This document shows positions 20,766-62,906 of a stretch of DNA of 64,000 bases, piece after piece. A program made the position numbers and the translations under genes. The notes under the pieces are model-generated. The model saw only the letters and a list, made by a program, of their open reading frames with translations, searched no databases and was not told where the DNA came from. Source of the stretch: an uncultured Leptospirales bacterium (lineage in GTDB: Bacteria; Spirochaetota; UBA4802; JAKQUI01); contig CAZZCF010000001.1 of the NCBI GenBank assembly GCA_964652955.1, forward strand, positions 12,555-76,554, read 5' to 3'. Every line of letters begins with the position of its first letter. Positions within the stretch are counted from its first letter, which is position 1.

Positions 20766-22409
20766 TCAGCGCGTAAAGAGATTTTTGAGCGCCTCCCACA
20801 GTTTCAGGAGCAGCACTCTCAGCAGTTGTCCGGGAGTTCCTTCTCCGGCATTCATGGTGAGCATGAGCTGTGCTCTTTTGATCTCCTCCGCGGTGAGCGG
20901 TCGTGAGCGCGATATTTCCTTACGTTTTTTCTTAACCTCTTTTCTCGCGAGCTTTAAAATTTCCTTCTCTTCATCGAGTCGTGCACGGGTAACCATATCA
21001 TAGAGGGTGGGCTCATGAAGCAATCTCTCGCGGATCTGTTGCAGCCGCTCGTGAGCATTCTGCAGGTGCGGATTTTTTCTGTTTTCGCTCAATTCGAGCA
21101 ACAGCTCGAGGTACTGGTTCAGGAAATAAGCCTGCTTGTACAATCGCTTCAATTCATCAATGGAGAGGCGTTCGAGATCGATTCTCTCAAACTCGTCAAC
21201 TGCAGTAATGATAAAATCCAGTGTTTCATCGGTCACCTTGAAGAGATCTTCCTGCTTGAGATCGCGAAGCTCAATGAATCGGTACGCGACTTCTTTGAGG
21301 TCATTCAACATCTGCTCGGAGATCTCCAGGAGGTATCGCAGACCGCGTTTCTCATGTGCGTTCAGGTGTGCCGATCCCCTTTCGGCATCGGAGAGCTTCT
21401 TGCGGATGTCATTGATGCTCAGCTGAGAAGGTTCAGCGGCGGCGTACTTTCGCTGCAGGGTGAATTCTTTATCGATAAAATTCGGTTCTGCGAGATCCTG
21501 ACCGATTTTCAGTATGTTCAATTTGATGTCACCGAGCAGCCTGAGGATTTTAAATCTGTCTATCTTGCTGATACCGTCGGTCACCACCAGTATCTCTGAA
21601 CGCATGATATCCTTATCGCGTTTGATATCCTCAATGGCCTGTTCAATCGCGAACTGAAGATTGGTGCTCCTCCCACCGGTGGTTGTTAAGAGGACTTTTT
21701 CAATCAACAGCGGGAAGTCCTCTTTTTCCCCCAATCGGTGGAGATCTCCGACATCCGAGTCGAAGGATCGAAAGAATATCATGGCATTGGTGTTCATCTT
21801 CCTCCTGAGGAATTCGGCGACGAGGCATTTGGAGAAAAAGGATCTCATTTTAAGATCCATGGAACGGGATCGATCCAGGAGGAGGTAAACCTTCTGCTCA
21901 AATCGATTCGCTGTTTTGCCGGTTTCGTCACGGCTTGTTGTTATCGGTTTATACTGATCGTATTCTGATTTATAGAATTTCTGAACCTGCAGTGTTTTCG
22001 TGAGGAGCTTGATGTCGAATATATCGTCCTCCTGAGCGAGCTCTCGCGGAAGGGACTTCTTCAAATCGTATATGGTTTTGAAAAAAGCAATTTCCATCGT
22101 ATCGCTGAGCGGGGAAGAGATCTCTTTTCTGTTTATCAGTATTGATTCATCCCGGTTCGGAGCTTTCATCCGCTCCTCCCGTGAGAGCTCCTCGATAGCG
22201 GTGAGTGCATCTGAGACGGTTTCCGGCGTGAATACGACCCGTGCGATTTCGAATATGGTCAGAAATTCTCTCGGGAGCATTGTCGCAAGATTATCGAAGA
22301 ATCCCAGAGCGTCCCAGTATTCAAAGAAATTGGTGCTCGGCTTATATGAGCGGGAGATGCTTTTGGAAGATGTTTGTATCACTTCATCTGCCTCACGCGG
22401 AAGATGCAT
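20766..22409 (-). CDS. von Willebrand factor type A (VWA) domain protein with long N- and C-terminal helical extensions
   Basis: MIDAS motif 'LLLDRSRSM' (DxSxS), followed by a '...TTGGRSTNLQFAIEQA...VVTDG' VWA core. About 175 aa N-terminal and 300 aa C-terminal of it (coiled-coil-like) are unassigned. Confidence 0.75.
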   Translation of the reverse strand: MHLPREADEVIQTSSKSISRSYKPSTNFFEYWDALGFFDNLATMLPREFLTIFEIARVVFTPETVSDALTAIEELSREERMKAPNRDESILINRKEISSPLSDTMEIAFFKTIYDLKKSLPRELAQEDDIFDIKLLTKTLQVQKFYKSEYDQYKPITTSRDETGKTANRFEQKVYLLLDRSRSMDLKMRSFFSKCLVAEFLRRKMNTNAMIFFRSFDSDVGDLHRLGEKEDFPLLIEKVLLTTTGGRSTNLQFAIEQAIEDIKRDKDIMRSEILVVTDGISKIDRFKILRLLGDIKLNILKIGQDLAEPNFIDKEFTLQRKYAAAEPSQLSINDIRKKLSDAERGSAHLNAHEKRGLRYLLEISEQMLNDLKEVAYRFIELRDLKQEDLFKVTDETLDFIITAVDEFERIDLERLSIDELKRLYKQAYFLNQYLELLLELSENRKNPHLQNAHERLQQIRERLLHEPTLYDMVTRARLDEEKEILKLARKEVKKKRKEISRSRPLTAEEIKRAQLMLTMNAGEGTPGQLLRVLLLKLWEALKNLFTR

Positions 22410-22491
22410 CCTGTCGATCGTGAAGGGTTTGCATCGAATGGTGTCTGCTCTTTATCCCTCTCACCGGGGGCATTGCCCCTGGCGTATGAAC

Positions 22492-23994
22492 TTACAGTAT
22501 GTTGCCATAGTCTTTCAGGATGCCTTCCTTGAGCTCTCGTACTTCTTCAACGGCCGGATGCAATTCTGTTATGCTGTTTTTCAGCGTTGCCAGTGTTATC
22601 TCCTCCTCCTCCACCTTCGATTTGCCGGGGAATATCTTCTTGAAGAGCTTCCGCAACCCCTGGAGGAGGCCGGTATCCTCTTTCAGCCGTTCCCTCTTTT
22701 CCGGATCTTCCCTCATCTCCTGAAGGAGCTTCCTGATATTGAGCAAAAACTCGATCTGATGAATTGCGCCCGTCGAGGTGAATTGTACCATGGTCTGTTC
22801 GTATGCATCCAGGAAGGCGTCTTTTTCGGATTTATCTCGTGCTTTCACCGAGATGTAGCTGTTCAGCGTGCAGAGCATCAGATACAAACTTTTTACATCA
22901 TCCATGGATACTTCATGCCGGTTGTCGAGAAGGGCGGCAGCTCTCAGAAAATCCGCCGACTTCGCCAGTTTTCTCGGGCTGATGAAGAAATTATATTCGC
23001 TCCGTCGCATTTCGGAAACGAATTTGTTGGTGATCACATTTTTCATAAAGAACACGGTGTCGGGAATGGTAACCTGAATATCCCTGTTGTTGTTTTTGAT
23101 GATTTCGGAGATGTGTATTATCTGGCTGAAGGGGATTTTCTTTTCCGGTTCGGTTGGCTTGCCGCGGCTGAACGCATAGGTATGATCGATAAGGAGCTGA
23201 GAGTACATATTCGAATCTTCCGGAATAATGGCCTTATAGATGAAACGGTCGAGCACCGCCTCGGTGACTTCATTGATTCTCATATAGTTGGCTGTTGCGA
23301 TGGTCGAATGTACCGCCGCATCGATGATCTCGGGACCATTGATGAACTTCCGCTCGTTGAGAACGGAGAGGAGCGATCGGAGCACAACATCACTGGCGTC
23401 GAAAAACTCATCCAGAAAAACAAGATCGGCCTCGATAATGGAGCCGTGAATATTATGGCGAATGATTCCCTTTTTGAACTCCTCAATGTTATAGGGGCCG
23501 AAATAGTTATCGGGGGTCTGGTCCTTGCTCGCCTGCGATGAGAAGACCCGAACATTATCGAAGGTGTTGAAGATATAATTGGCAAGGTATGATTTTGCCA
23601 TGCCGGTTCTGCTCAGGAGGAGGAGATGCTCCTGGGTGAGTATGGCATACATCGCCTGTTTGATAATCTCATCCCGGCCGATGACGTTCTGGGAGATCCG
23701 TTCCATATGCCATTTTAAATAGCTCGTAATCGAGGGGATATCGTAGTCAGCCTCTTTCTCGACAATCTCCACCGGAATATCCGGTACTTTCCCCGGTTTT
23801 TTTTCGACCCGGCTGGTGACAACAAACTGAGAGGGTGTCTCCGTATCGCGCTCAATCCTGTCGTCCTCGCGGCATATTCCCGGTTCCGCATCATCGGGTG
23901 TGTAAATATAGTACCCCTCTTCTTCGAACAGCGATTCGACTGAAGCGTATTTGATTAATTCTCGTTTTTCCGATTTTGATCGCATCGTATACAT
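22492..23994 (-). CDS. MoxR-like AAA+ ATPase (AAA_3/AAA_5 class) with degenerate P-loop and long terminal extensions
   Basis: 'GRDEIIKQAMYAILTQEHLLLLSRTGMAKS' (Walker A-like), 'DLVFLDEF' (Walker B), 'TIATANYM' (sensor 1) and 'AVLDRFIYK' (arginine finger) are arranged as in MoxR/RavA. ATG 23994 lies 13 nt after the kinase stop behind a GGAGA RBS. Confidence 0.75.
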   Translation of the reverse strand: MYTMRSKSEKRELIKYASVESLFEEEGYYIYTPDDAEPGICREDDRIERDTETPSQFVVTSRVEKKPGKVPDIPVEIVEKEADYDIPSITSYLKWHMERISQNVIGRDEIIKQAMYAILTQEHLLLLSRTGMAKSYLANYIFNTFDNVRVFSSQASKDQTPDNYFGPYNIEEFKKGIIRHNIHGSIIEADLVFLDEFFDASDVVLRSLLSVLNERKFINGPEIIDAAVHSTIATANYMRINEVTEAVLDRFIYKAIIPEDSNMYSQLLIDHTYAFSRGKPTEPEKKIPFSQIIHISEIIKNNNRDIQVTIPDTVFFMKNVITNKFVSEMRRSEYNFFISPRKLAKSADFLRAAALLDNRHEVSMDDVKSLYLMLCTLNSYISVKARDKSEKDAFLDAYEQTMVQFTSTGAIHQIEFLLNIRKLLQEMREDPEKRERLKEDTGLLQGLRKLFKKIFPGKSKVEEEEITLATLKNSITELHPAVEEVRELKEGILKDYGNIL

Positions 23995-24007
23995 CAATCT
24001 CCGGTTT

Positions 24008-36994: not shown

Positions 36995-37759
36995 ATGAGA
37001 AGATTTTATATTATACTTATACCCATACTGTTGTTTATGGTTAGTAATTTGTTAATAGTTATTCCTGATAATTGCAGGACCCTTGATGATTTGATCAGTC
37101 AATTGAATTTTTTCAGTTATGTATTAAAGATATTGTTTGTTTTGTTAGCAATTGCTATTTTTCTAATATACAATTTAACAGCTGTAATGGGAACTTTGAA
37201 TAAATTTATTCAATTTGATACGATTAGACCGGATATAATTGGCAAGTTGGTTGAAGAATCTTTAAACATTTTTAAGGAATTGGGTATTGAATTTAGAGTT
37301 AATGTAATGCTGGTTAAATTTAAAATCATTGTATGGAAACGATTTATAAAATTTCTTCGGCCATTTATTTTTCAAAAACAATTCAAAACCGTTTATCATT
37401 ACAATATGGAGCATGATCGAGATAAGGATTTAGGGCTTATAACAAAGCAGGGTGTTGCAGGTTTGGCTTATAATGATCCCGAGGGGAAACATAGAATCGT
37501 TGATTTTATGAATGTTGATAGGAAATTTTTTAAATTAGATAAAGATCAACTTGATAGAACAAAGAGTATTAAATTTGTAATTAGCACTCCAATTCTTAAA
37601 TGGAATCATGAAACTGGTAAATTAACTGATAAGGTTATCGGAGTGGTCAACATTGATAGTAGAAATAATTCATTTAAGATTATACAGGAAAAAGTTGTAA
37701 TTGAGGATTTAGTTCAGTACAGTTACAATATAGCTGATTATGTCGCAAAGTTATATTAA
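36995..37759 (+). CDS. AT-rich islet gene: N-terminal 2-TM segment plus GAF-like domain protein
   Basis: Local GC is roughly 30% against about 57% for its neighbours. Two TM helices are followed by 'GLITKQGVAGLAYNDPEGKHRIVDF...SIKFVISTPIL...KVIGVVNIDS', which matches the GAF ligand-binding core pattern. Confidence 0.5.
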   Translation: MRRFYIILIPILLFMVSNLLIVIPDNCRTLDDLISQLNFFSYVLKILFVLLAIAIFLIYNLTAVMGTLNKFIQFDTIRPDIIGKLVEESLNIFKELGIEFRVNVMLVKFKIIVWKRFIKFLRPFIFQKQFKTVYHYNMEHDRDKDLGLITKQGVAGLAYNDPEGKHRIVDFMNVDRKFFKLDKDQLDRTKSIKFVISTPILKWNHETGKLTDKVIGVVNIDSRNNSFKIIQEKVVIEDLVQYSYNIADYVAKLY

Positions 37760-37804
37760 TTTGATTTCTTTTATGAGAATTGTATATTCAATACAGAGGC
37801 TAAA

Positions 37805-38011
37805 ATGAATAGCAAAAAGAAAAAAGACGACAATAAAACAATGCTTGTAGAAATAGAAGGTATGCCTGGAGTGTATACCTCAACTGGCAGTTGTCATTCA
37901 ACCGATATTGATTATTCTACATTGGTAGATAGAATATTAAAGCCGTTAGAAAAAACAAGAAAAATAAAAGGTCCAATTCCCAAATGGCCTATAAAAGGTG
38001 TGGAAGAATGA
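37805..38011 (+). CDS. Small hypothetical protein (68 aa) in the AT-rich islet
   Basis: Open frame with Lys-rich N-terminus; no recognisable motif. Coding status uncertain. Confidence 0.3.
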   Translation: MNSKKKKDDNKTMLVEIEGMPGVYTSTGSCHSTDIDYSTLVDRILKPLEKTRKIKGPIPKWPIKGVEE

Positions 38012-41069: not shown

Positions 41070-41837
41070 ATGTACGTAATGCTGATTATGAGAACTATAA
41101 AAATGAGATGTACGGCATTTCTCGCCCTGCTTGCGGTGCTGATCCCGGCTTTCCCGGCGGGCGCTCAGATTCTCCTCGATTTCGAAAACGGGATTGTTGC
41201 CAGCGGTTATAACGATGTCCGTATTCCCGGCGACGGGGGGACGACATTCTCCCTCTCCGATGATCTGAAGAGCGATCCCGTCTACTTTTACCGGTTTCGG
41301 CTGGGGTATCTCCTCGAACGGCATTCACTCTCGCTGCTCATCGCGCCGCTTCGCGTTGAATCGGAGGGGCAGGTCGATCGCGAGGTGCGGTTCGGGGACA
41401 CGGTTTTCCCCGCCGATACCGATCTCAAATCCGAGTACCGCTTCGATTCGTATCGGGCGACCTACCGCTACGACTTCTTCGTGGGCGAATCGTTGCGCAT
41501 CGGTGCGGGCCTCACCGGCAAGATACGCGATGCGTCCATCAGCCTCGAGGGGGACGGCCGGCGGGAGGAGAAGAAGAACACCGGATTCGTTCCCCTGATC
41601 AATTTCAGCCTGCAGTGGCTTTTCGTCAGGTCCTTCAGCCTGCTCGTCGACGGCGACGCCCTCTTTTCTCCCTACGGACGGGCCGAGGATATTCTCTTCG
41701 CGCTCCAGTATCATCACAGCCGTCGTCTCGCCGTGCGGCTGGGATACCGGATGCTCGAAGGGGGCGCCGACAACGATGAGGTGTACACCTTCGCCCTCTT
41801 CCACTACGCCGTTTTCGGCATAACACTCCTTCTCTAG
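41070..41837 (+). CDS. Putative outer-membrane beta-barrel protein
   Basis: Signal peptide '[17 protein letters not shown]', alternating hydrophobic beta-strand pattern and an aromatic C-terminus. Start could be Met12 (41103). Confidence 0.5.
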
Positions 41838-43150
41838 GGCGGCCACTCGAATTCCGTCTGATGGGCGTCCTTCTGCCTCGCCGATGCCCTGACGATCGGG
41901 ATCTCCTCCCATCGCGTGGTAAACCGGGGAGAGAGCTTCAGCTGGCGCATGCGCCACTCCTTGCGAATCCCCTCCGCCGCGTAGACGACGGTGCCCGTGC
42001 CCCATCGGTCGTTGATCCGGTCGACTGTCTTCATCAGCAGCTGCTGTTTCTCGCCGGGGGTTTCCCTGAAGAGATTGAGCTGCGCCTGATCCTCCGGTAT
42101 GATTTCGGAGAAGAAAACCCCCGTTTTCTTGTAGCGGAAGCCGGGCCGGTATATTTTCGCGAGGAGCCGGTGCGCGTGCCGGATGAGCTCGGCGGTATAG
42201 GAGGTGGGGAGGGGCACTCTGAGGGTGATGCTGTTGTGGTACTGCGGTTCATCCTTGAAGGGGTTGGTGCCCAGGAAAACGGTTATGAAGAGGGCCACCG
42301 AGCGCTGGGCGCGGAGCTTCTGTGCCGCCCGCGATACGTATGCAGCGAGCGCCTCCCCGAGCTCGGAAAGCCGCTCCACCGGCCTCCCGAAGGAGCGGGA
42401 GCTGACGATCCCCTTTTTGGGAGGGGGGGCCTCCTCGAGGGGAATGCAGGAGTGCCCCCGCAGCTCCCATACGGTGCGCAGCCCCATGACGGTCATGTGC
42501 TTCCGTATCCAGCGGTCCGGCGCGTCCCTGAGGTCGAGGGCGGTGAAGATGCCGTTCAGGTTAAGCAGCCTGGTGTACTGCATGCCGACCCCCCAGATAT
42601 CTTCTACCTTCACGCTCTTCAGAAGTCTTTCGCGCCCGGGATATCCGGCGATAGTGAACACCCCGCGATGGCCGGAGCTCCTCTTTGCCAGCCTGCTGGC
42701 CAGCTTGGCCAGCGTCTTGGTGGGACCGATCCCGATGGACGTGGGGATGCCGGTCCACTGCAGGACGGTTTCCCGCATCTGATGGGCGTATTCGGTGACA
42801 TCGGGCACGGAGAACAGCCTGCCGAGGGAGAGGAAGGCCTCGTCGATGGAATATATTTCCATGTCCGGGGCAAAGGGTGAGATGGTATCCATCACGCGCC
42901 GGGACATATCGCCATAGAGGGCGTAATTGGAGGAGAAAGCGGCAACGGCACCTTCTTTCACAAGCTCCCGGCACTCGAAGGCGGGGGCGCCGAATCGTAT
43001 TCCCATCGCCTTGGCCTCGTTTGAGCGGGCGACGACGTTCCCGTCGTTGTTGGAGAGCACCACGACAGGCTTCCCCCGGAGGCCGGGATTGAACACCCGC
43101 TCGCAGGAAACGTAGAAGTTGTTGCAGTCCACGAGGGCGAAAAGAGACAC
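41834..43150 (-). CDS. umuC: Y-family translesion DNA polymerase (DNA polymerase V catalytic subunit)
   Basis: '[36 protein letters not shown]' is the UmuC/DinB N-terminal catalytic motif. GTG 43150 has an AGGAG RBS and lies 11 nt after the umuD stop; the track ORF extends into umuD. Confidence 0.85.
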
Positions 43151-43161
43151 CGTTCCCGCTC

Positions 43162-43605
43162 CTACACCTGATGGATGACGTGGGAGACCACCCCCCACAC
43201 CTCGAACTCCATCTCGGGGGTGACCTCAATGGGCGCAAAGGCCGGATTCTCGGGTATCAGGGAGACGGTGTTGCGCATCCGCTGTATGCGCTTCACGGTG
43301 AGCTCGCCGTTCACCGCCGCGATGACGATCCGGTTGTCCGTCGCCTCGAGGGCGCGGTCCACTATCAGGATATCGCCGGGATTGATGCCTGCGTCGATCA
43401 TGGAGTTCCCCGATACGCGCACGAAAAAAGTTGCCGCGGGATGCCTGATCAGAAGCTCGTTGAGATCGAGCTTTTTATCGATGTAGTCGTCGGCGGGAGA
43501 GGGAAACCCCGCGGATATATTCGCCGCAAAGAGGGGGAGCTCCTCTCGCTGCTGATTCGCGAAACGGTATATCTCCTCTATGCAGTCGCTCTTTGTTCTT
43601 TTCAT
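43162..43605 (-). CDS. umuD: UmuD-like S24 peptidase (SOS mutagenesis accessory protein)
   Basis: Candidate 'AG' cleavage site in 'ISAGFPSP', Ser nucleophile in 'GNSM' and Lys in 'VKRI'; no HTH. ATG 43605 is preceded by GAGGTGGAG. Confidence 0.85.
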
Positions 43606-43626
43606 GTCTCCACCTCGTATGCGTGC

Positions 43627-43669
43627 TTGTGCACAATATACTATATATATGTATAGTATATTGTGCAAC
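43627..43669 (-). promoter_or_regulatory. Perfect 14-bp inverted repeat CACAATATACTATA-TATATG-TATAGTATATTGTG upstream of umuD (candidate operator / SOS box)
   Basis: Read directly; arms are exact reverse complements with a 6-bp spacer, 25-60 nt upstream of the umuD start. Confidence 0.5.
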
Positions 43670-43827
43670 AACAATTTTTTCCGTTCCGGGAATTTTTTGC
43701 GGGGCGTGCGGCGAGAGGAATTCACGTTTACGGGAAGCGTATGGGGGTAGATGTTTATATGCTATGGTCGAGAGCGCTGCCCGCTAATATGGATAGAACC
43801 GTTCGCCCTGCTCATGCCGGGCGATAG

Positions 43828-61517: not shown

Positions 61518-62585
61518 TCAGAGCCGCTCCTGTATGTACTTGGTGAGTATGTTTCGGGCGGGATCTGACATCTCCAGGAGGCGGAAGGTGTAGTACGAAA
61601 CGCTCTCCTCGGTGATGGTCCTGTCGGAGATGACCTTTGAGGTAATGTTTATCTTGAACTCCGAGAGCTCGAATTGCAGCGAGTAGCTCTTCTCGTAATC
61701 CAGCTTCTCTGCGACGCGCACTATCGCCTCGAACTCGTTCATCTTGTAAATAGTGCCGTTTATTTGTACAGCTTCACCGAGCCCGGCTTCCTCCTCCGCT
61801 TTGAGTTCGGTTATGATACATGAGATGATCGTATCGATGTAGGGATGGCGCTCCTCTTCACCACGGGTGAAGACATCGGGGAGGGGAATGCCTATCAATT
61901 TATTTTCAACAGTGGCAATGGCAGTATCAAAGGTATATTCGGCATCTCCCTTTCTCCAGAGATATACCCTGATCGGCTTACCGGCGAAGTCCCTATATTC
62001 GCCGGGATTGCGAAACAGCTTAACGGAGAGCATCTTGTCCTTATTCCCGATGACGCGGCCGATAAAGACATCATTCTCTTCGGTGAAGAAACAGAGGAGG
62101 ATGTCGGTCTCGAGATCGGTTAGGCGATCCAGCGTTTTTTTAACGCTCTTTCGGTGATAGAGCTTTTCATAGGTTTTAATGATGTCGATGCTTATCTGAT
62201 GGAGTGATTCCTGCAGCTCTTCCTGCTCACGCAGAAACGGTAAAAAGCTTCCCAGGGATAATTCAAAGAGATCCGGATTCTGCAGGATATTAATGGAATC
62301 CTTGAGTTTCAGCATATTTGCCAATCCGTTCAGAATCTTGATCTGGTAATTGGAGAGCCCGAGCTGCTTCGTCTTGAAGAGGAAGAGCTGTTCTGCATGC
62401 ATCTTCTTCTTTTGCAGGTAGTGATTGTACCTGAACAGTATGAGAAAGGCGAGCACAAGGAGTACTACCAGGATGATGAGCACCATTTCGATTGCAGAGG
62501 GAACAGGCCATTTCACACCCCATACCGTTTCTATCATGATGAGGCACTCCTGCTTTTTTTTACGCCCGCAGGTGCCGTGTAGCAA
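61518..62585 (-). CDS. Membrane-anchored protein with YcgR/PilZ-like C-terminal region (weak)
   Basis: One TM helix ('MVLIILVVLLVLAFLILF'), then a beta-rich region loosely resembling YcgR-N plus PilZ; the RxxxR / DxSxxG motifs are not canonical. Start is uncertain. Confidence 0.35.
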   Translation of the reverse strand: MLHGTCGRKKKQECLIMIETVWGVKWPVPSAIEMVLIILVVLLVLAFLILFRYNHYLQKKKMHAEQLFLFKTKQLGLSNYQIKILNGLANMLKLKDSINILQNPDLFELSLGSFLPFLREQEELQESLHQISIDIIKTYEKLYHRKSVKKTLDRLTDLETDILLCFFTEENDVFIGRVIGNKDKMLSVKLFRNPGEYRDFAGKPIRVYLWRKGDAEYTFDTAIATVENKLIGIPLPDVFTRGEEERHPYIDTIISCIITELKAEEEAGLGEAVQINGTIYKMNEFEAIVRVAEKLDYEKSYSLQFELSEFKINITSKVISDRTITEESVSYYTFRLLEMSDPARNILTKYIQERL

Positions 62586-62906
62586 TCGATTTATTGAACC
62601 TGTCGACGCAGGTGGGTACCTTCATGATAAGCTTCAACCTTCTTCTGCCGAGGAAGCTTGATCTCCACTTTCAGATTCAGGTTCCCTTCATTTTTGCTGT
62701 TGGCTCAAAAATGCAAAATACTATCACGTGCACTGCAGGCTGTTTGATAAGATAACAAAACAGGGTGAATAAAAGCAATTAAAAAATAAATTTTATCGAT
62801 GGAATCACGATTGAGGAGGGCTAAAAAAAGGTGGACAGACGCCGTTGCGCACTGTAGGGTACCTTGCCGCGGATATATACGGATATATTTGTACGGGAGT
62901 ATTTAG

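Follow-up and report, generated by a model that had tools for sequence, protein, structure and literature searches.

A conserved palindrome over the putative umuDC promoter of an uncultured Spirochaetota lineage as a candidate SOS operator

Described SOS operators and mutagenic polymerase operons

The LexA box of Escherichia coli has the consensus TACTGTATATATATACAGTA, in which the G and C of CTGT/ACAG are the most critical bases for LexA binding. Many spirochaetes are not known to carry lexA. To our knowledge, no SOS system is recognised in most cultured Spirochaetota, and little information is available on how members of the phylum other than Leptospira regulate their response to DNA damage. 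Leptospira is the sole spirochaete with a characterised SOS system, and ChIP-seq in Leptospira interrogans defined the LexA1 box as CTnnACnnnnGTnnAG (PMC4756842). In Leptospira, the operators of recA and recN contain the literal half-sites CTATAC and GTATAG, and among the genes of the regulon is dinP, for a Y-family polymerase, with LexA1 binding in its promoter region (PMC3789691).

Two further systems bear on error-prone polymerase genes. Bacteroidetes, once believed to be without LexA, have lineage-specific palindromes in their umuD and dinB promoters and employ non-canonical, CI-like SOS regulators that read the motifs GGA-N5-TCC and CTAA-N5-TTAG (PMC8565304). In Acinetobacter, the UmuDAb-DdrR regulon is governed through an unusually large operator (PMC11332147). 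The locus described here is a umuDC operon within a 64-kb stretch of DNA (the window), and a long palindrome lies in front of it.

The umuDC operon and its chromosomal setting

The two genes lie on the same strand, umuD upstream, with an 11-nt gap between them (43151-43161; Table 1). They had been described as a umuDC operon from the sequence, and that assignment is borne out, with both genes over the NCBI curated cut-offs for Pol V. UmuC has the domains IMS, IMS_C and DUF4113 (Pfam) and lies barely over the cut-off of the NCBIfam UmuC model NF002955 (440.6 bits against 431). The NCBIfam DinB and Pol IV models all score far under their cut-offs on it, and on these criteria the product is a UmuC-type Y-family polymerase, not one of the DinB type.

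UmuD passes its own NCBIfam model, NF007621, with ease (169.6 bits against a cut-off of 110) and stays under the threshold of the LexA equivalog TIGR00498 (89.6 against 110.95). In an alignment to E. coli UmuD (PDB 8gmt_B; E = 4.9e-40), Ala32-Gly33 falls opposite the Cys24-Gly25 cleavage site and the catalytic dyad is present, with GNSM for GDSM at Ser60 and TVKR at the Lys97 position. The locus therefore has in common with E. coli umuDC the gene order and short gap, the UmuD cleavage site with its Ser/Lys dyad, and an operator-like element over the promoter; the umuD-then-umuC arrangement is common to all relatives examined. Peptidase_S24 is the only Pfam domain of the protein. Without a DNA-binding domain, UmuD cannot repress its own operon. 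A longer, GTG-started umuD reading frame would cross the palindrome, but the ATG and Shine-Dalgarno sequence of the orthologues argue otherwise, GAGGTG standing at the same place in three of them (L001, L095 and L006).

Table 1. Positions of the umuDC genes and upstream elements in the window
Feature	Position	Strand	Description
umuC	41834-43150	-	438 aa, GTG start; Y-family polymerase subunit of Pol V
umuD	43162-43605	-	147 aa, S24 self-cleaving subunit; ATG at 43605
Shine-Dalgarno region	43608-43616	-	GAGGTGGAG; ends 2 nt before umuD ATG; read from sequence
Full palindrome	43630-43667		TGCACAATATACTATA-TATATG-TATAGTATATTGTGCA; 38 bp, 16-nt perfect arms
Conserved dyad (proposed operator)	43635-43662		AATATACTATA-N6-TATAGTATATT; 28 bp, 11-6-11
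Core	43641-43656		16 bp; CTATATATATGTATAG on the + strand, CTATAC-ATAT-ATATAG in umuD orientation
Sigma-70-like promoter within palindrome (putative)	43640-43667	-	-35 TGCACA (43667-43662), 16-nt spacer, -10 TATAGT (43645-43640)
A-tract + TTGTTGTT block	43666-43681	-	Conserved; just upstream of dyad

Whose chromosome is this, if it is a chromosome? Every named top relative of the enolase encoded in the window is a Spirochaetota metagenome-assembled genome (MAG), at 72-80% identity, so the window comes from an uncultured Spirochaetota lineage. Near-identical contigs occur in JGI 3300017989 and 3300018080, a 94% relative in SRR7614767, and the samples are of hypersaline sediment. Enolase, dCMP deaminase, PFK and PFOR flank umuDC also in relatives whose UmuD is as little as 75% identical, and this conserved housekeeping synteny places umuDC on the chromosome, as opposed to a recent mobile element. 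The preliminary description had allowed for either location; of the two, the chromosomal one stands. There are no tRNAs, nor are there recombinase or mobile-element genes nearby. A plasmid origin was rejected, the best plasmid-borne UmuC homologue being 52% identical, as was a phage origin, there being no phage DNA match. The raised GC content (0.613 versus 0.513) is the sole hint of an old transfer.

A conserved dyad overlapping a putative promoter

Counted from the umuD ATG, the palindrome lies 26-60 nt upstream. It had been reported as a perfect 14-bp inverted repeat, CACAATATACTATA-N6-TATAGTATATTGTG, which is found at exactly 43632-43665; this somewhat understates its arms (Table 1), and when the palindrome is scored without a loop, the arms lengthen to 19 nt and contain a single mismatch. 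No other inverted repeat in the 64-kb window combines perfect arms of at least 10 nt with a loop of at most 10 nt. Thirty shuffles that preserve dinucleotide composition gave longest perfect arms of 9-13 nt, against the 16 nt observed. The core is likewise the single site in the window within one mismatch of CTATAC-N4-GTATAG; apart from the umuD site, the half-site, TACTAT-N8-ATAGTA, CTATAC-N4-GTATAG and CTnnACnnnnGTnnAG all occur there at shuffle level. REP elements and IS ends were rejected as explanations, the palindrome being single copy and at a fixed orthologous position. A scan of viral contigs for ATACTAT-N8-ATAGTAT returned at least 120 matches, which are AT-rich noise. The strict 20-mer has four matches there, three of them within repeats of the (TA)n type and the fourth in front of a RusA-like gene, and all four were judged to be chance.

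How well is the palindrome conserved? Five distinct orthologous umuD upstream regions were aligned, their UmuD proteins being 75-100% identical. In the syntenic relatives (75-94%) the flanks have diverged and the 28-bp dyad is retained: 23 of 32 columns are invariant in the dyad block and 14 of 21 in the A-tract/TTGTTG block, whereas for the upstream flank the figure is 9 of 50. The clade-wide core is the 16-bp CTATAY-ATAT-RTATAG. The half-site as first proposed holds for its inner part, the 28-bp dyad, and not for its outer CAC/GTG, which only the window and the relative closest to it have. Two of the differences among orthologues are symmetric double substitutions, one at pair 6/35 (C-G in the window, T-A in L001) and the other at pair 8/33 (G-C in L006, A-T in the others). 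These two independent changes preserve the symmetry of the dyad, although they could reflect template-switch correction of a quasi-palindrome rather than selection. Farther afield, a more distant umuD locus (L097) carries two adjacent boxes that each match the Leptospira LexA1 consensus at 7/8. When UmuD was used to scan metagenome contigs, the relatives among the matches listed were at most 67% identical and the motif was absent, with the exception of one partial locus that has the imperfect version of the dyad seen in a Spirochaetota MAG. A similar scan of a genome-contig collection gave a best match of 69% identity.

The 11-6-11 layout of the conserved dyad invites comparison with Xer sites, which have a 28-bp, 11-6-11 architecture with distinct XerC and XerD arms. 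That the dyad is a dif/Xer-type site for site-specific recombination is nevertheless extremely improbable. Its arms are fully symmetric, unlike those bound by XerC and XerD, and in all orthologues it keeps a fixed distance upstream of umuD, beside promoter elements. Moreover, no GC-skew sign change occurs nearby, the cumulative skew climbing steadily across the window, and, as mentioned, recombinase and mobile-element genes are absent from its surroundings.

What the palindrome does overlap is a putative promoter. The sigma-70-like hexamers in Table 1 make 9 of 12 consensus matches, the assignment being one of consensus match only, and the alternative hexamers TTGTTG (-35) and TATATA (-10) are also present. 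The predicted transcription start falls inside the promoter-proximal arm of the palindrome. Just upstream, AAAAAATT(G/A)TTGTT is invariant in 5/5 orthologues, with diverged intergenic DNA around it, and the A-tract/TTGTTGTT block looks like an UP element plus alternative -35. Could the whole block, then, simply be a strong AT-rich promoter of UP element, -35 and TA-rich -10, with no dedicated repressor and with a neutral symmetry produced by (TA)n slippage and template-switch correction? The centre of the dyad is indeed (TA)n-like, symmetry of the outer arms TGCAC/GTGCA is confined to the window and L001, and one NCBI contig stops at the dyad, which marks it as troublesome DNA. The promoter match is also identical on the + strand, because the palindrome is symmetric. 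However, a one-way promoter needs no mirror arm on its downstream side, but here the sequence after the -10, TATAGTAT, does not vary among orthologues, and neither do the symmetric non-TA bases C13 and G28 (alignment A2). An unregulated mutagenic polymerase would also be unusual, the umuDC operons known to us being repressed, and we regard this explanation as quite unlikely.

A structural role for the palindrome at the level of nucleic acid, as a DNA cruciform or as an RNA stem-loop that serves processing, stability or attenuation in transcripts reading through from the gene upstream, is a very unlikely alternative. For the sense RNA, the predicted fold has an energy of -27.1 kcal/mol (z = -4.7), and across orthologues 91% of cells pair when G-U is counted, with three pairs changed on both sides; the observed covariation score was reached in 4 of 500 shuffles. 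Against this, 8 of the 16 pairs are invariant in sequence, a better fit to a protein recognition site than to a freely co-varying stem, and no Rfam family matches at the palindrome. The only conserved promoter-like elements would start transcription inside the palindrome, leaving the left arm out of the umuDC mRNA. Nor is the palindrome an intrinsic terminator, since no U-tract comes after the stem: the stem is AT-rich, the umuD strand continues after it with CAAGCACGC, and a terminator scan made no call.

The data support a palindrome that is real, non-random and conserved, and that overlaps promoter-like hexamers as expected of an operator.

Candidate regulators of the operon

Which regulator would read such a site? 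It was put forward as a non-canonical SOS box, and it is one, with CTAT-N8-ATAG in place of CTGT-N8-ACAG. The critical G and C are missing, and a LexA box of the E. coli or gammaproteobacterial type was rejected on that ground. The 20-mer TACTATACATATATATAGTA is identical to the E. coli consensus at 17 of 20 positions when compared by eye. The core matches the Leptospira LexA1 consensus at 7/8 in every orthologue, though this consensus is degenerate and 6/8 is reached by chance in most 250-nt regions; the fit to CTGT-N8-ACAG, at 6/8, is only marginally lower. The motif, which was suggested to define the LexA box of the lineage and may do so, differs from the E. coli consensus; its core is not unprecedented, resembling the Leptospira LexA1 box.

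With that box the site shares a phylum and a 16-bp palindromic frame, and the CT/AG ends and one AC/GT are found in every orthologue here. It differs in that degeneracy always affects one of the two AC/GT positions and in that the symmetry of the dyad reaches out to 28 bp (38 bp in this strain), the AT-rich flanks being invariant. The organism of the window is not one of the Leptospiraceae. The Leptospira LexA2 box, TTGTA-N10-TACAA, is a misfit, the outer arms here (ACAAT...ATTGT) having the opposite orientation. Three lexA promoters from Leptospiraceae-like MAGs (L303, L304 and L306), none of them from the window's lineage, contain no clear CTATAC-N4-GTATAG. In other phyla within the same data set, S24 genes have the known LexA boxes of their hosts at a similar position; GAAC-N4-GTTC lies upstream of S24 genes in Syntrophorhabdus loci, and CTGT...ATAG lies upstream of lexA in a Wenzhouxiangellaceae MAG (L083) and related loci.

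A search was made for the regulator itself. In the 64-kb window there is no lexA (tblastn), recA or other SOS gene, nor any regulator close to umuDC (Pfam on about 50 window ORFs), and tblastn found no lexA in the fetched loci, the syntenic ones included. The LexA query was a Leptospira sequence, 96% identical to a database protein, and all the proteins that it retrieved were from Leptospiraceae.

One reading of these results is that the dyad serves a non-canonical regulator encoded elsewhere, either a phage-CI-like HTH-S24 protein or a repressor of some other kind, dimeric or tetrameric, that reads the 11-6-11 arrangement. The absence of lexA from the window and syntenic loci is in keeping with this, as is the symmetric co-variation, which in a dyad of 28 bp extends some 13 bp outward from its centre and exceeds typical LexA boxes. 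There are also precedents on umuDC in Bacteroidetes (PMC8565304) and in Acinetobacter UmuDAb (PMC11332147), the latter resembling the present case in placing an error-prone polymerase operon under an unusually long palindromic operator. The precedents do not carry over in detail, however. The UmuDAb operator, with its TTGA arms and GTnAC core (TTGA...GTnAC...TCAA), is unrelated to the dyad, and UmuDAb-type self-regulation was rejected: UmuDAb carries an extra N-terminal DNA-binding domain that it requires and that the 147-aa, S24-only UmuD lacks. Sequence inspection likewise gave no match of the dyad to the Bacteroidetes boxes GGA-N5-TCC and CTAA-N5-TTAG. In Bacteroidetes the regulator is often encoded beside the polymerase, whereas no regulator gene adjoins umuDC in any syntenic locus here. 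Since the core, in addition, conforms to the CT-N12-AG frame seen in LexA boxes already known, a non-canonical regulator of this kind seems unlikely. A broader proposal, that the 28-bp dyad is the site of a distinct SOS regulator, whether a LexA of extended, new specificity or a non-LexA repressor, is a less likely reading.

The length of the dyad deserves mention in its own right: at 28 bp it is longer than the usual LexA site of 16-20 bp, which counts against a site of the usual kind.

The palindrome probably serves a dimeric SOS repressor of the LexA type as its operator, placed over the core promoter of umuDC on a Spirochaetota chromosome. We infer that a repressor binds there, that it is a LexA with leptospiral specificity and that the operon is damage inducible. 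In undamaged cells, the repressor would sit on the 16-bp core together with AT-rich symmetric flanking bases and, lying over the spacer and -10, would block RNA polymerase. Upon DNA damage, activated RecA would bring about self-cleavage of the repressor, and umuDC would be transcribed. UmuD would then be cut at Ala32-Gly33 to give UmuD', which together with UmuC would form Pol V.

Such an arrangement is otherwise the expected one for a mutagenic polymerase operon and is ordinary in kind. Its use lies in the conserved candidate operator, which offers a seed motif for rebuilding the SOS regulon of the lineage from MAGs and a concrete EMSA probe for the cognate LexA. Should a distinct regulator turn out to act on the 28-bp dyad, the site would represent a new class of SOS box and would widen the taxonomic reach of the SOS response to uncultured, free-living Spirochaetota.

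The umuDC operon and its genomic setting

The preliminary description of this stretch proposed a umuDC operon, and this holds: the two minus-strand genes lie 11 nt apart, and both products score above the cut-offs of the NCBI curated models for Pol V subunits (UmuD, 169.6 against NF007621, cut-off 110; UmuC, 440.6 against NF002955, cut-off 431). The pair scores under the LexA and Pol IV models' own cut-offs. Pfam finds Peptidase_S24 alone in UmuD and IMS, IMS_C, and DUF4113 in UmuC. Aligned with Escherichia coli UmuD (8gmt_B; E = 4.9e-40), UmuD keeps the catalytic Ser and Lys motifs and has Ala32-Gly33 at the Cys24-Gly25 cleavage position. UmuDAb-type self-regulation is ruled out, since UmuD lacks a DNA-binding domain.

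Coordinates of features in the window
Feature	Position	Strand	Details
umuDC operon	41834-43605	-	GC 0.613
umuD	43162-43605	-	147 aa; ATG preceded by GAGGTGGAG
umuC	41834-43150	-	438 aa; GTG start
Palindrome	43630-43667		38 bp; perfect arms of 16 nt
Conserved dyad	43635-43662		28 bp
Core of dyad	43641-43656		16 bp
Terminator-like hairpin	43678-43692	+	followed by T6
Low-GC islet	37001-38000		GC 0.289
ORF in islet	36995-37759		254 aa; no Pfam match
6S RNA	62560-62744	-	full length; Rfam RF00013; 94.8 bits (gathering score, 46.4)
Longest ORF call at 6S RNA	61518-62585	-	5' end slightly overlapped by 6S RNA
bpMoxR-type AAA+ ATPase and adjoining ORF	20766-23997	-	ATPase, PF20030; ORF, 547 aa, without Pfam match

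Is the cassette chromosomal or borne on a mobile element, both of which had been entertained? Loci with UmuD 100%, 94%, and 75% identical share one gene order (PFOR, Sua5, DUF501, enolase, dCMP deaminase, a 330- to 360-aa protein without a Pfam match, umuD, umuC, PFK), no tRNA, integrase, or transposase lies beside the operon, and the nearest plasmid UmuC is 52% identical. These observations indicate that the cassette sits on the chromosome and has passed vertically within this clade, and the mobile option falls away. The window's enolase has its best named relatives exclusively in Spirochaetota metagenome-assembled genomes (MAGs) (72 to 80% identity), and the window's proteins are also found on metagenome contigs from NCBI, JGI, and ENA. 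The operon is about 10 points richer in GC than the window (0.513), and UmuD is 65 to 69% identical to proteins of unrelated phyla (Sumerlaeota, WOR-3, Omnitrophota, and Desulfuromonas), features compatible with an old horizontal origin despite the present synteny.

Just upstream of the PFK gene, the low-GC islet, which also contains small ORFs, may be a recent insertion, as syntenic relatives carry different genes on that side of PFK. Elsewhere, the 6S RNA overlap places the true start of the overlapped ORF probably further downstream, and the bpMoxR ATPase (the MoxR domain type of MoxR-vWA-beta-propeller ternary systems) and its neighbor may form part of such a system.

A conserved dyad over the predicted umuDC promoter

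The inverted repeat upstream of umuD had been located exactly, but its length was understated. It is the sole inverted repeat in the 64-kb window with perfect arms of at least 10 nt and a loop of at most 10 nt; the longest perfect arms in 30 dinucleotide-preserving shuffles were 9 to 13 nt. Reading toward umuD, AAAAAATTGTTGTTGCACAATATACTATACATATATATAGTATATTGTGCAC is followed by 24 nt and the ATG. The site was compared across an alignment of five distinct orthologous sequences (from the window and comparison loci L001, L300, L095, and L006). Invariant columns number 9 of 50 in the upstream flank, which is nearly unalignable, 14 of 21 in the A-tract/TTGTTGTT block, and 23 of 32 in the dyad, the common element being AATATACTATA-N6-TATAGTATATT. 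Symmetry of the TGCAC/GTGCA ends is confined to the window and L001. Two independent double changes keep the dyad symmetric, one at mirrored columns 6/35 (C-G in the window, T-A in L001) and one at 8/33 (G-C in L006, A-T in the others), and the lone central mismatch switches arms between strains: the window reads CTATAC...ATATAG, the other sequences CTATAT...GTATAG. The contig of L300 (GCA_975960765.1, an NCBI MAG; positions 1-60) stops just past the dyad (…TATAGTATATTGGGT); the palindrome probably disrupts assembly from short reads, and this may account for the absence of umuDC from some bins of the lineage.

A promoter consensus scan places TGCACA-16-TATAGT (9 of 12 matches) within the palindrome, on both strands because of its symmetry; TTGTTG and TATATA are alternative hexamers. 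The adjoining plus-strand hairpin, kept only in the window and L001, would halt antisense transcripts of the mirror-image promoter.

What might bind here? We think it reasonably probable that a LexA-type dimer would sit on the dyad and occlude the -10 element and spacer of the umuDC promoter. Repression would be lifted once RecA stimulates the repressor to cleave itself; UmuD would then be cut at Ala32-Gly33, and Pol V would assemble. Binding by a non-LexA repressor, to which the unusual length of the dyad might point, is unlikely. That the site is a plain promoter whose symmetry is neutral, arising by template-switch correction, is a distinctly improbable reading, the invariant downstream arm being useless to a unidirectional promoter. 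An RNA or DNA hairpin could draw on the folding energy (-27 kcal/mol, z = -4.7) and some covariation, but is very improbable given the missing U-tract, a transcription start predicted inside the dyad from conserved promoter elements, and sequence invariance in half of the pairs. A dif/Xer-like site we regard as excluded, as GC skew climbs steadily and the promoter context is fixed.

Resemblance to leptospiral LexA boxes

The E. coli SOS box needs CTGT/ACAG. The 20-mer TACTATACATATATATAGTA is identical to the E. coli consensus at 17 of 20 positions, but CTAT/ATAG stands in their place, so the motif was rightly called noncanonical. The LexA1 box of Leptospira interrogans, from ChIP-seq, is the 16-nt palindrome CTnnACnnnnGTnnAG (PMC4756842). 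In all orthologues the core fits this consensus at 7 of 8 positions, one better than the E. coli frame; it is a weak consensus, and most 250-nt regions reach 6 of 8 by chance. The half-sites CTATAC and GTATAG occur verbatim in the boxes of Leptospira recA (TTTGCTATACAAA) and of the recN promoter (TTTGtatagCAAT) (PMC3789691). We take the match as a good lead, to which the common phylum adds credibility, though it falls short of proof.

More distant loci were also compared. L097 (JGI 3300009506) has, upstream of umuD at about positions 340-375 of that locus, a palindrome of 34 bp that differs in sequence, CTAAACATA-N16-TATGTTTAG, readable as a pair of CTnnACnnnnGTnnAG-like boxes 2 nt apart, each matching at 7 of 8 positions, and L010, a Spirochaetota MAG, has ATAC-ATTT-GTATAG. 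Some 60 nt upstream of umuD in L009, L220, and L222 (unclassified MAG; UmuD 67 to 68% identical) lies a 30-bp AT-rich palindrome, GCATAA-N18-TTATGC, with outer arms similar to the L001 arms TGCATAAT...ATTATGCA but differently spaced. A viral contig, L311 (IMG/VR 3300037245_001991), carries a perfect TACTATACATATGTATAGTA palindrome at 1360-1379, in GC-rich flanks and roughly 200 nt upstream of the gene for a RusA-like resolvase, probably by coincidence.

Neither lexA, recA, nor any other SOS gene lies in the 64-kb window, and no second copy of the site rises above chance there. In a loose motif scan of viral contigs, AT-rich noise overwhelmed the matches. A LexA search with an approximate Leptospira LexA (96% identical to the database entry) matched Leptospiraceae proteins throughout, and the three Leptospiraceae lexA promoters inspected showed no clear box. 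With neither SOS gene nor second site in the window and a search fruitless for the lineage, it is by inference that we call the regulator LexA-type.

Overall, this uncultured spirochete has a well-formed umuDC operon on its chromosome, with a conserved candidate SOS-type operator. The extended 28-bp dyad is the point of modest interest, and it could serve as a starting motif from which to reconstruct the SOS regulon of Spirochaetota other than leptospires.
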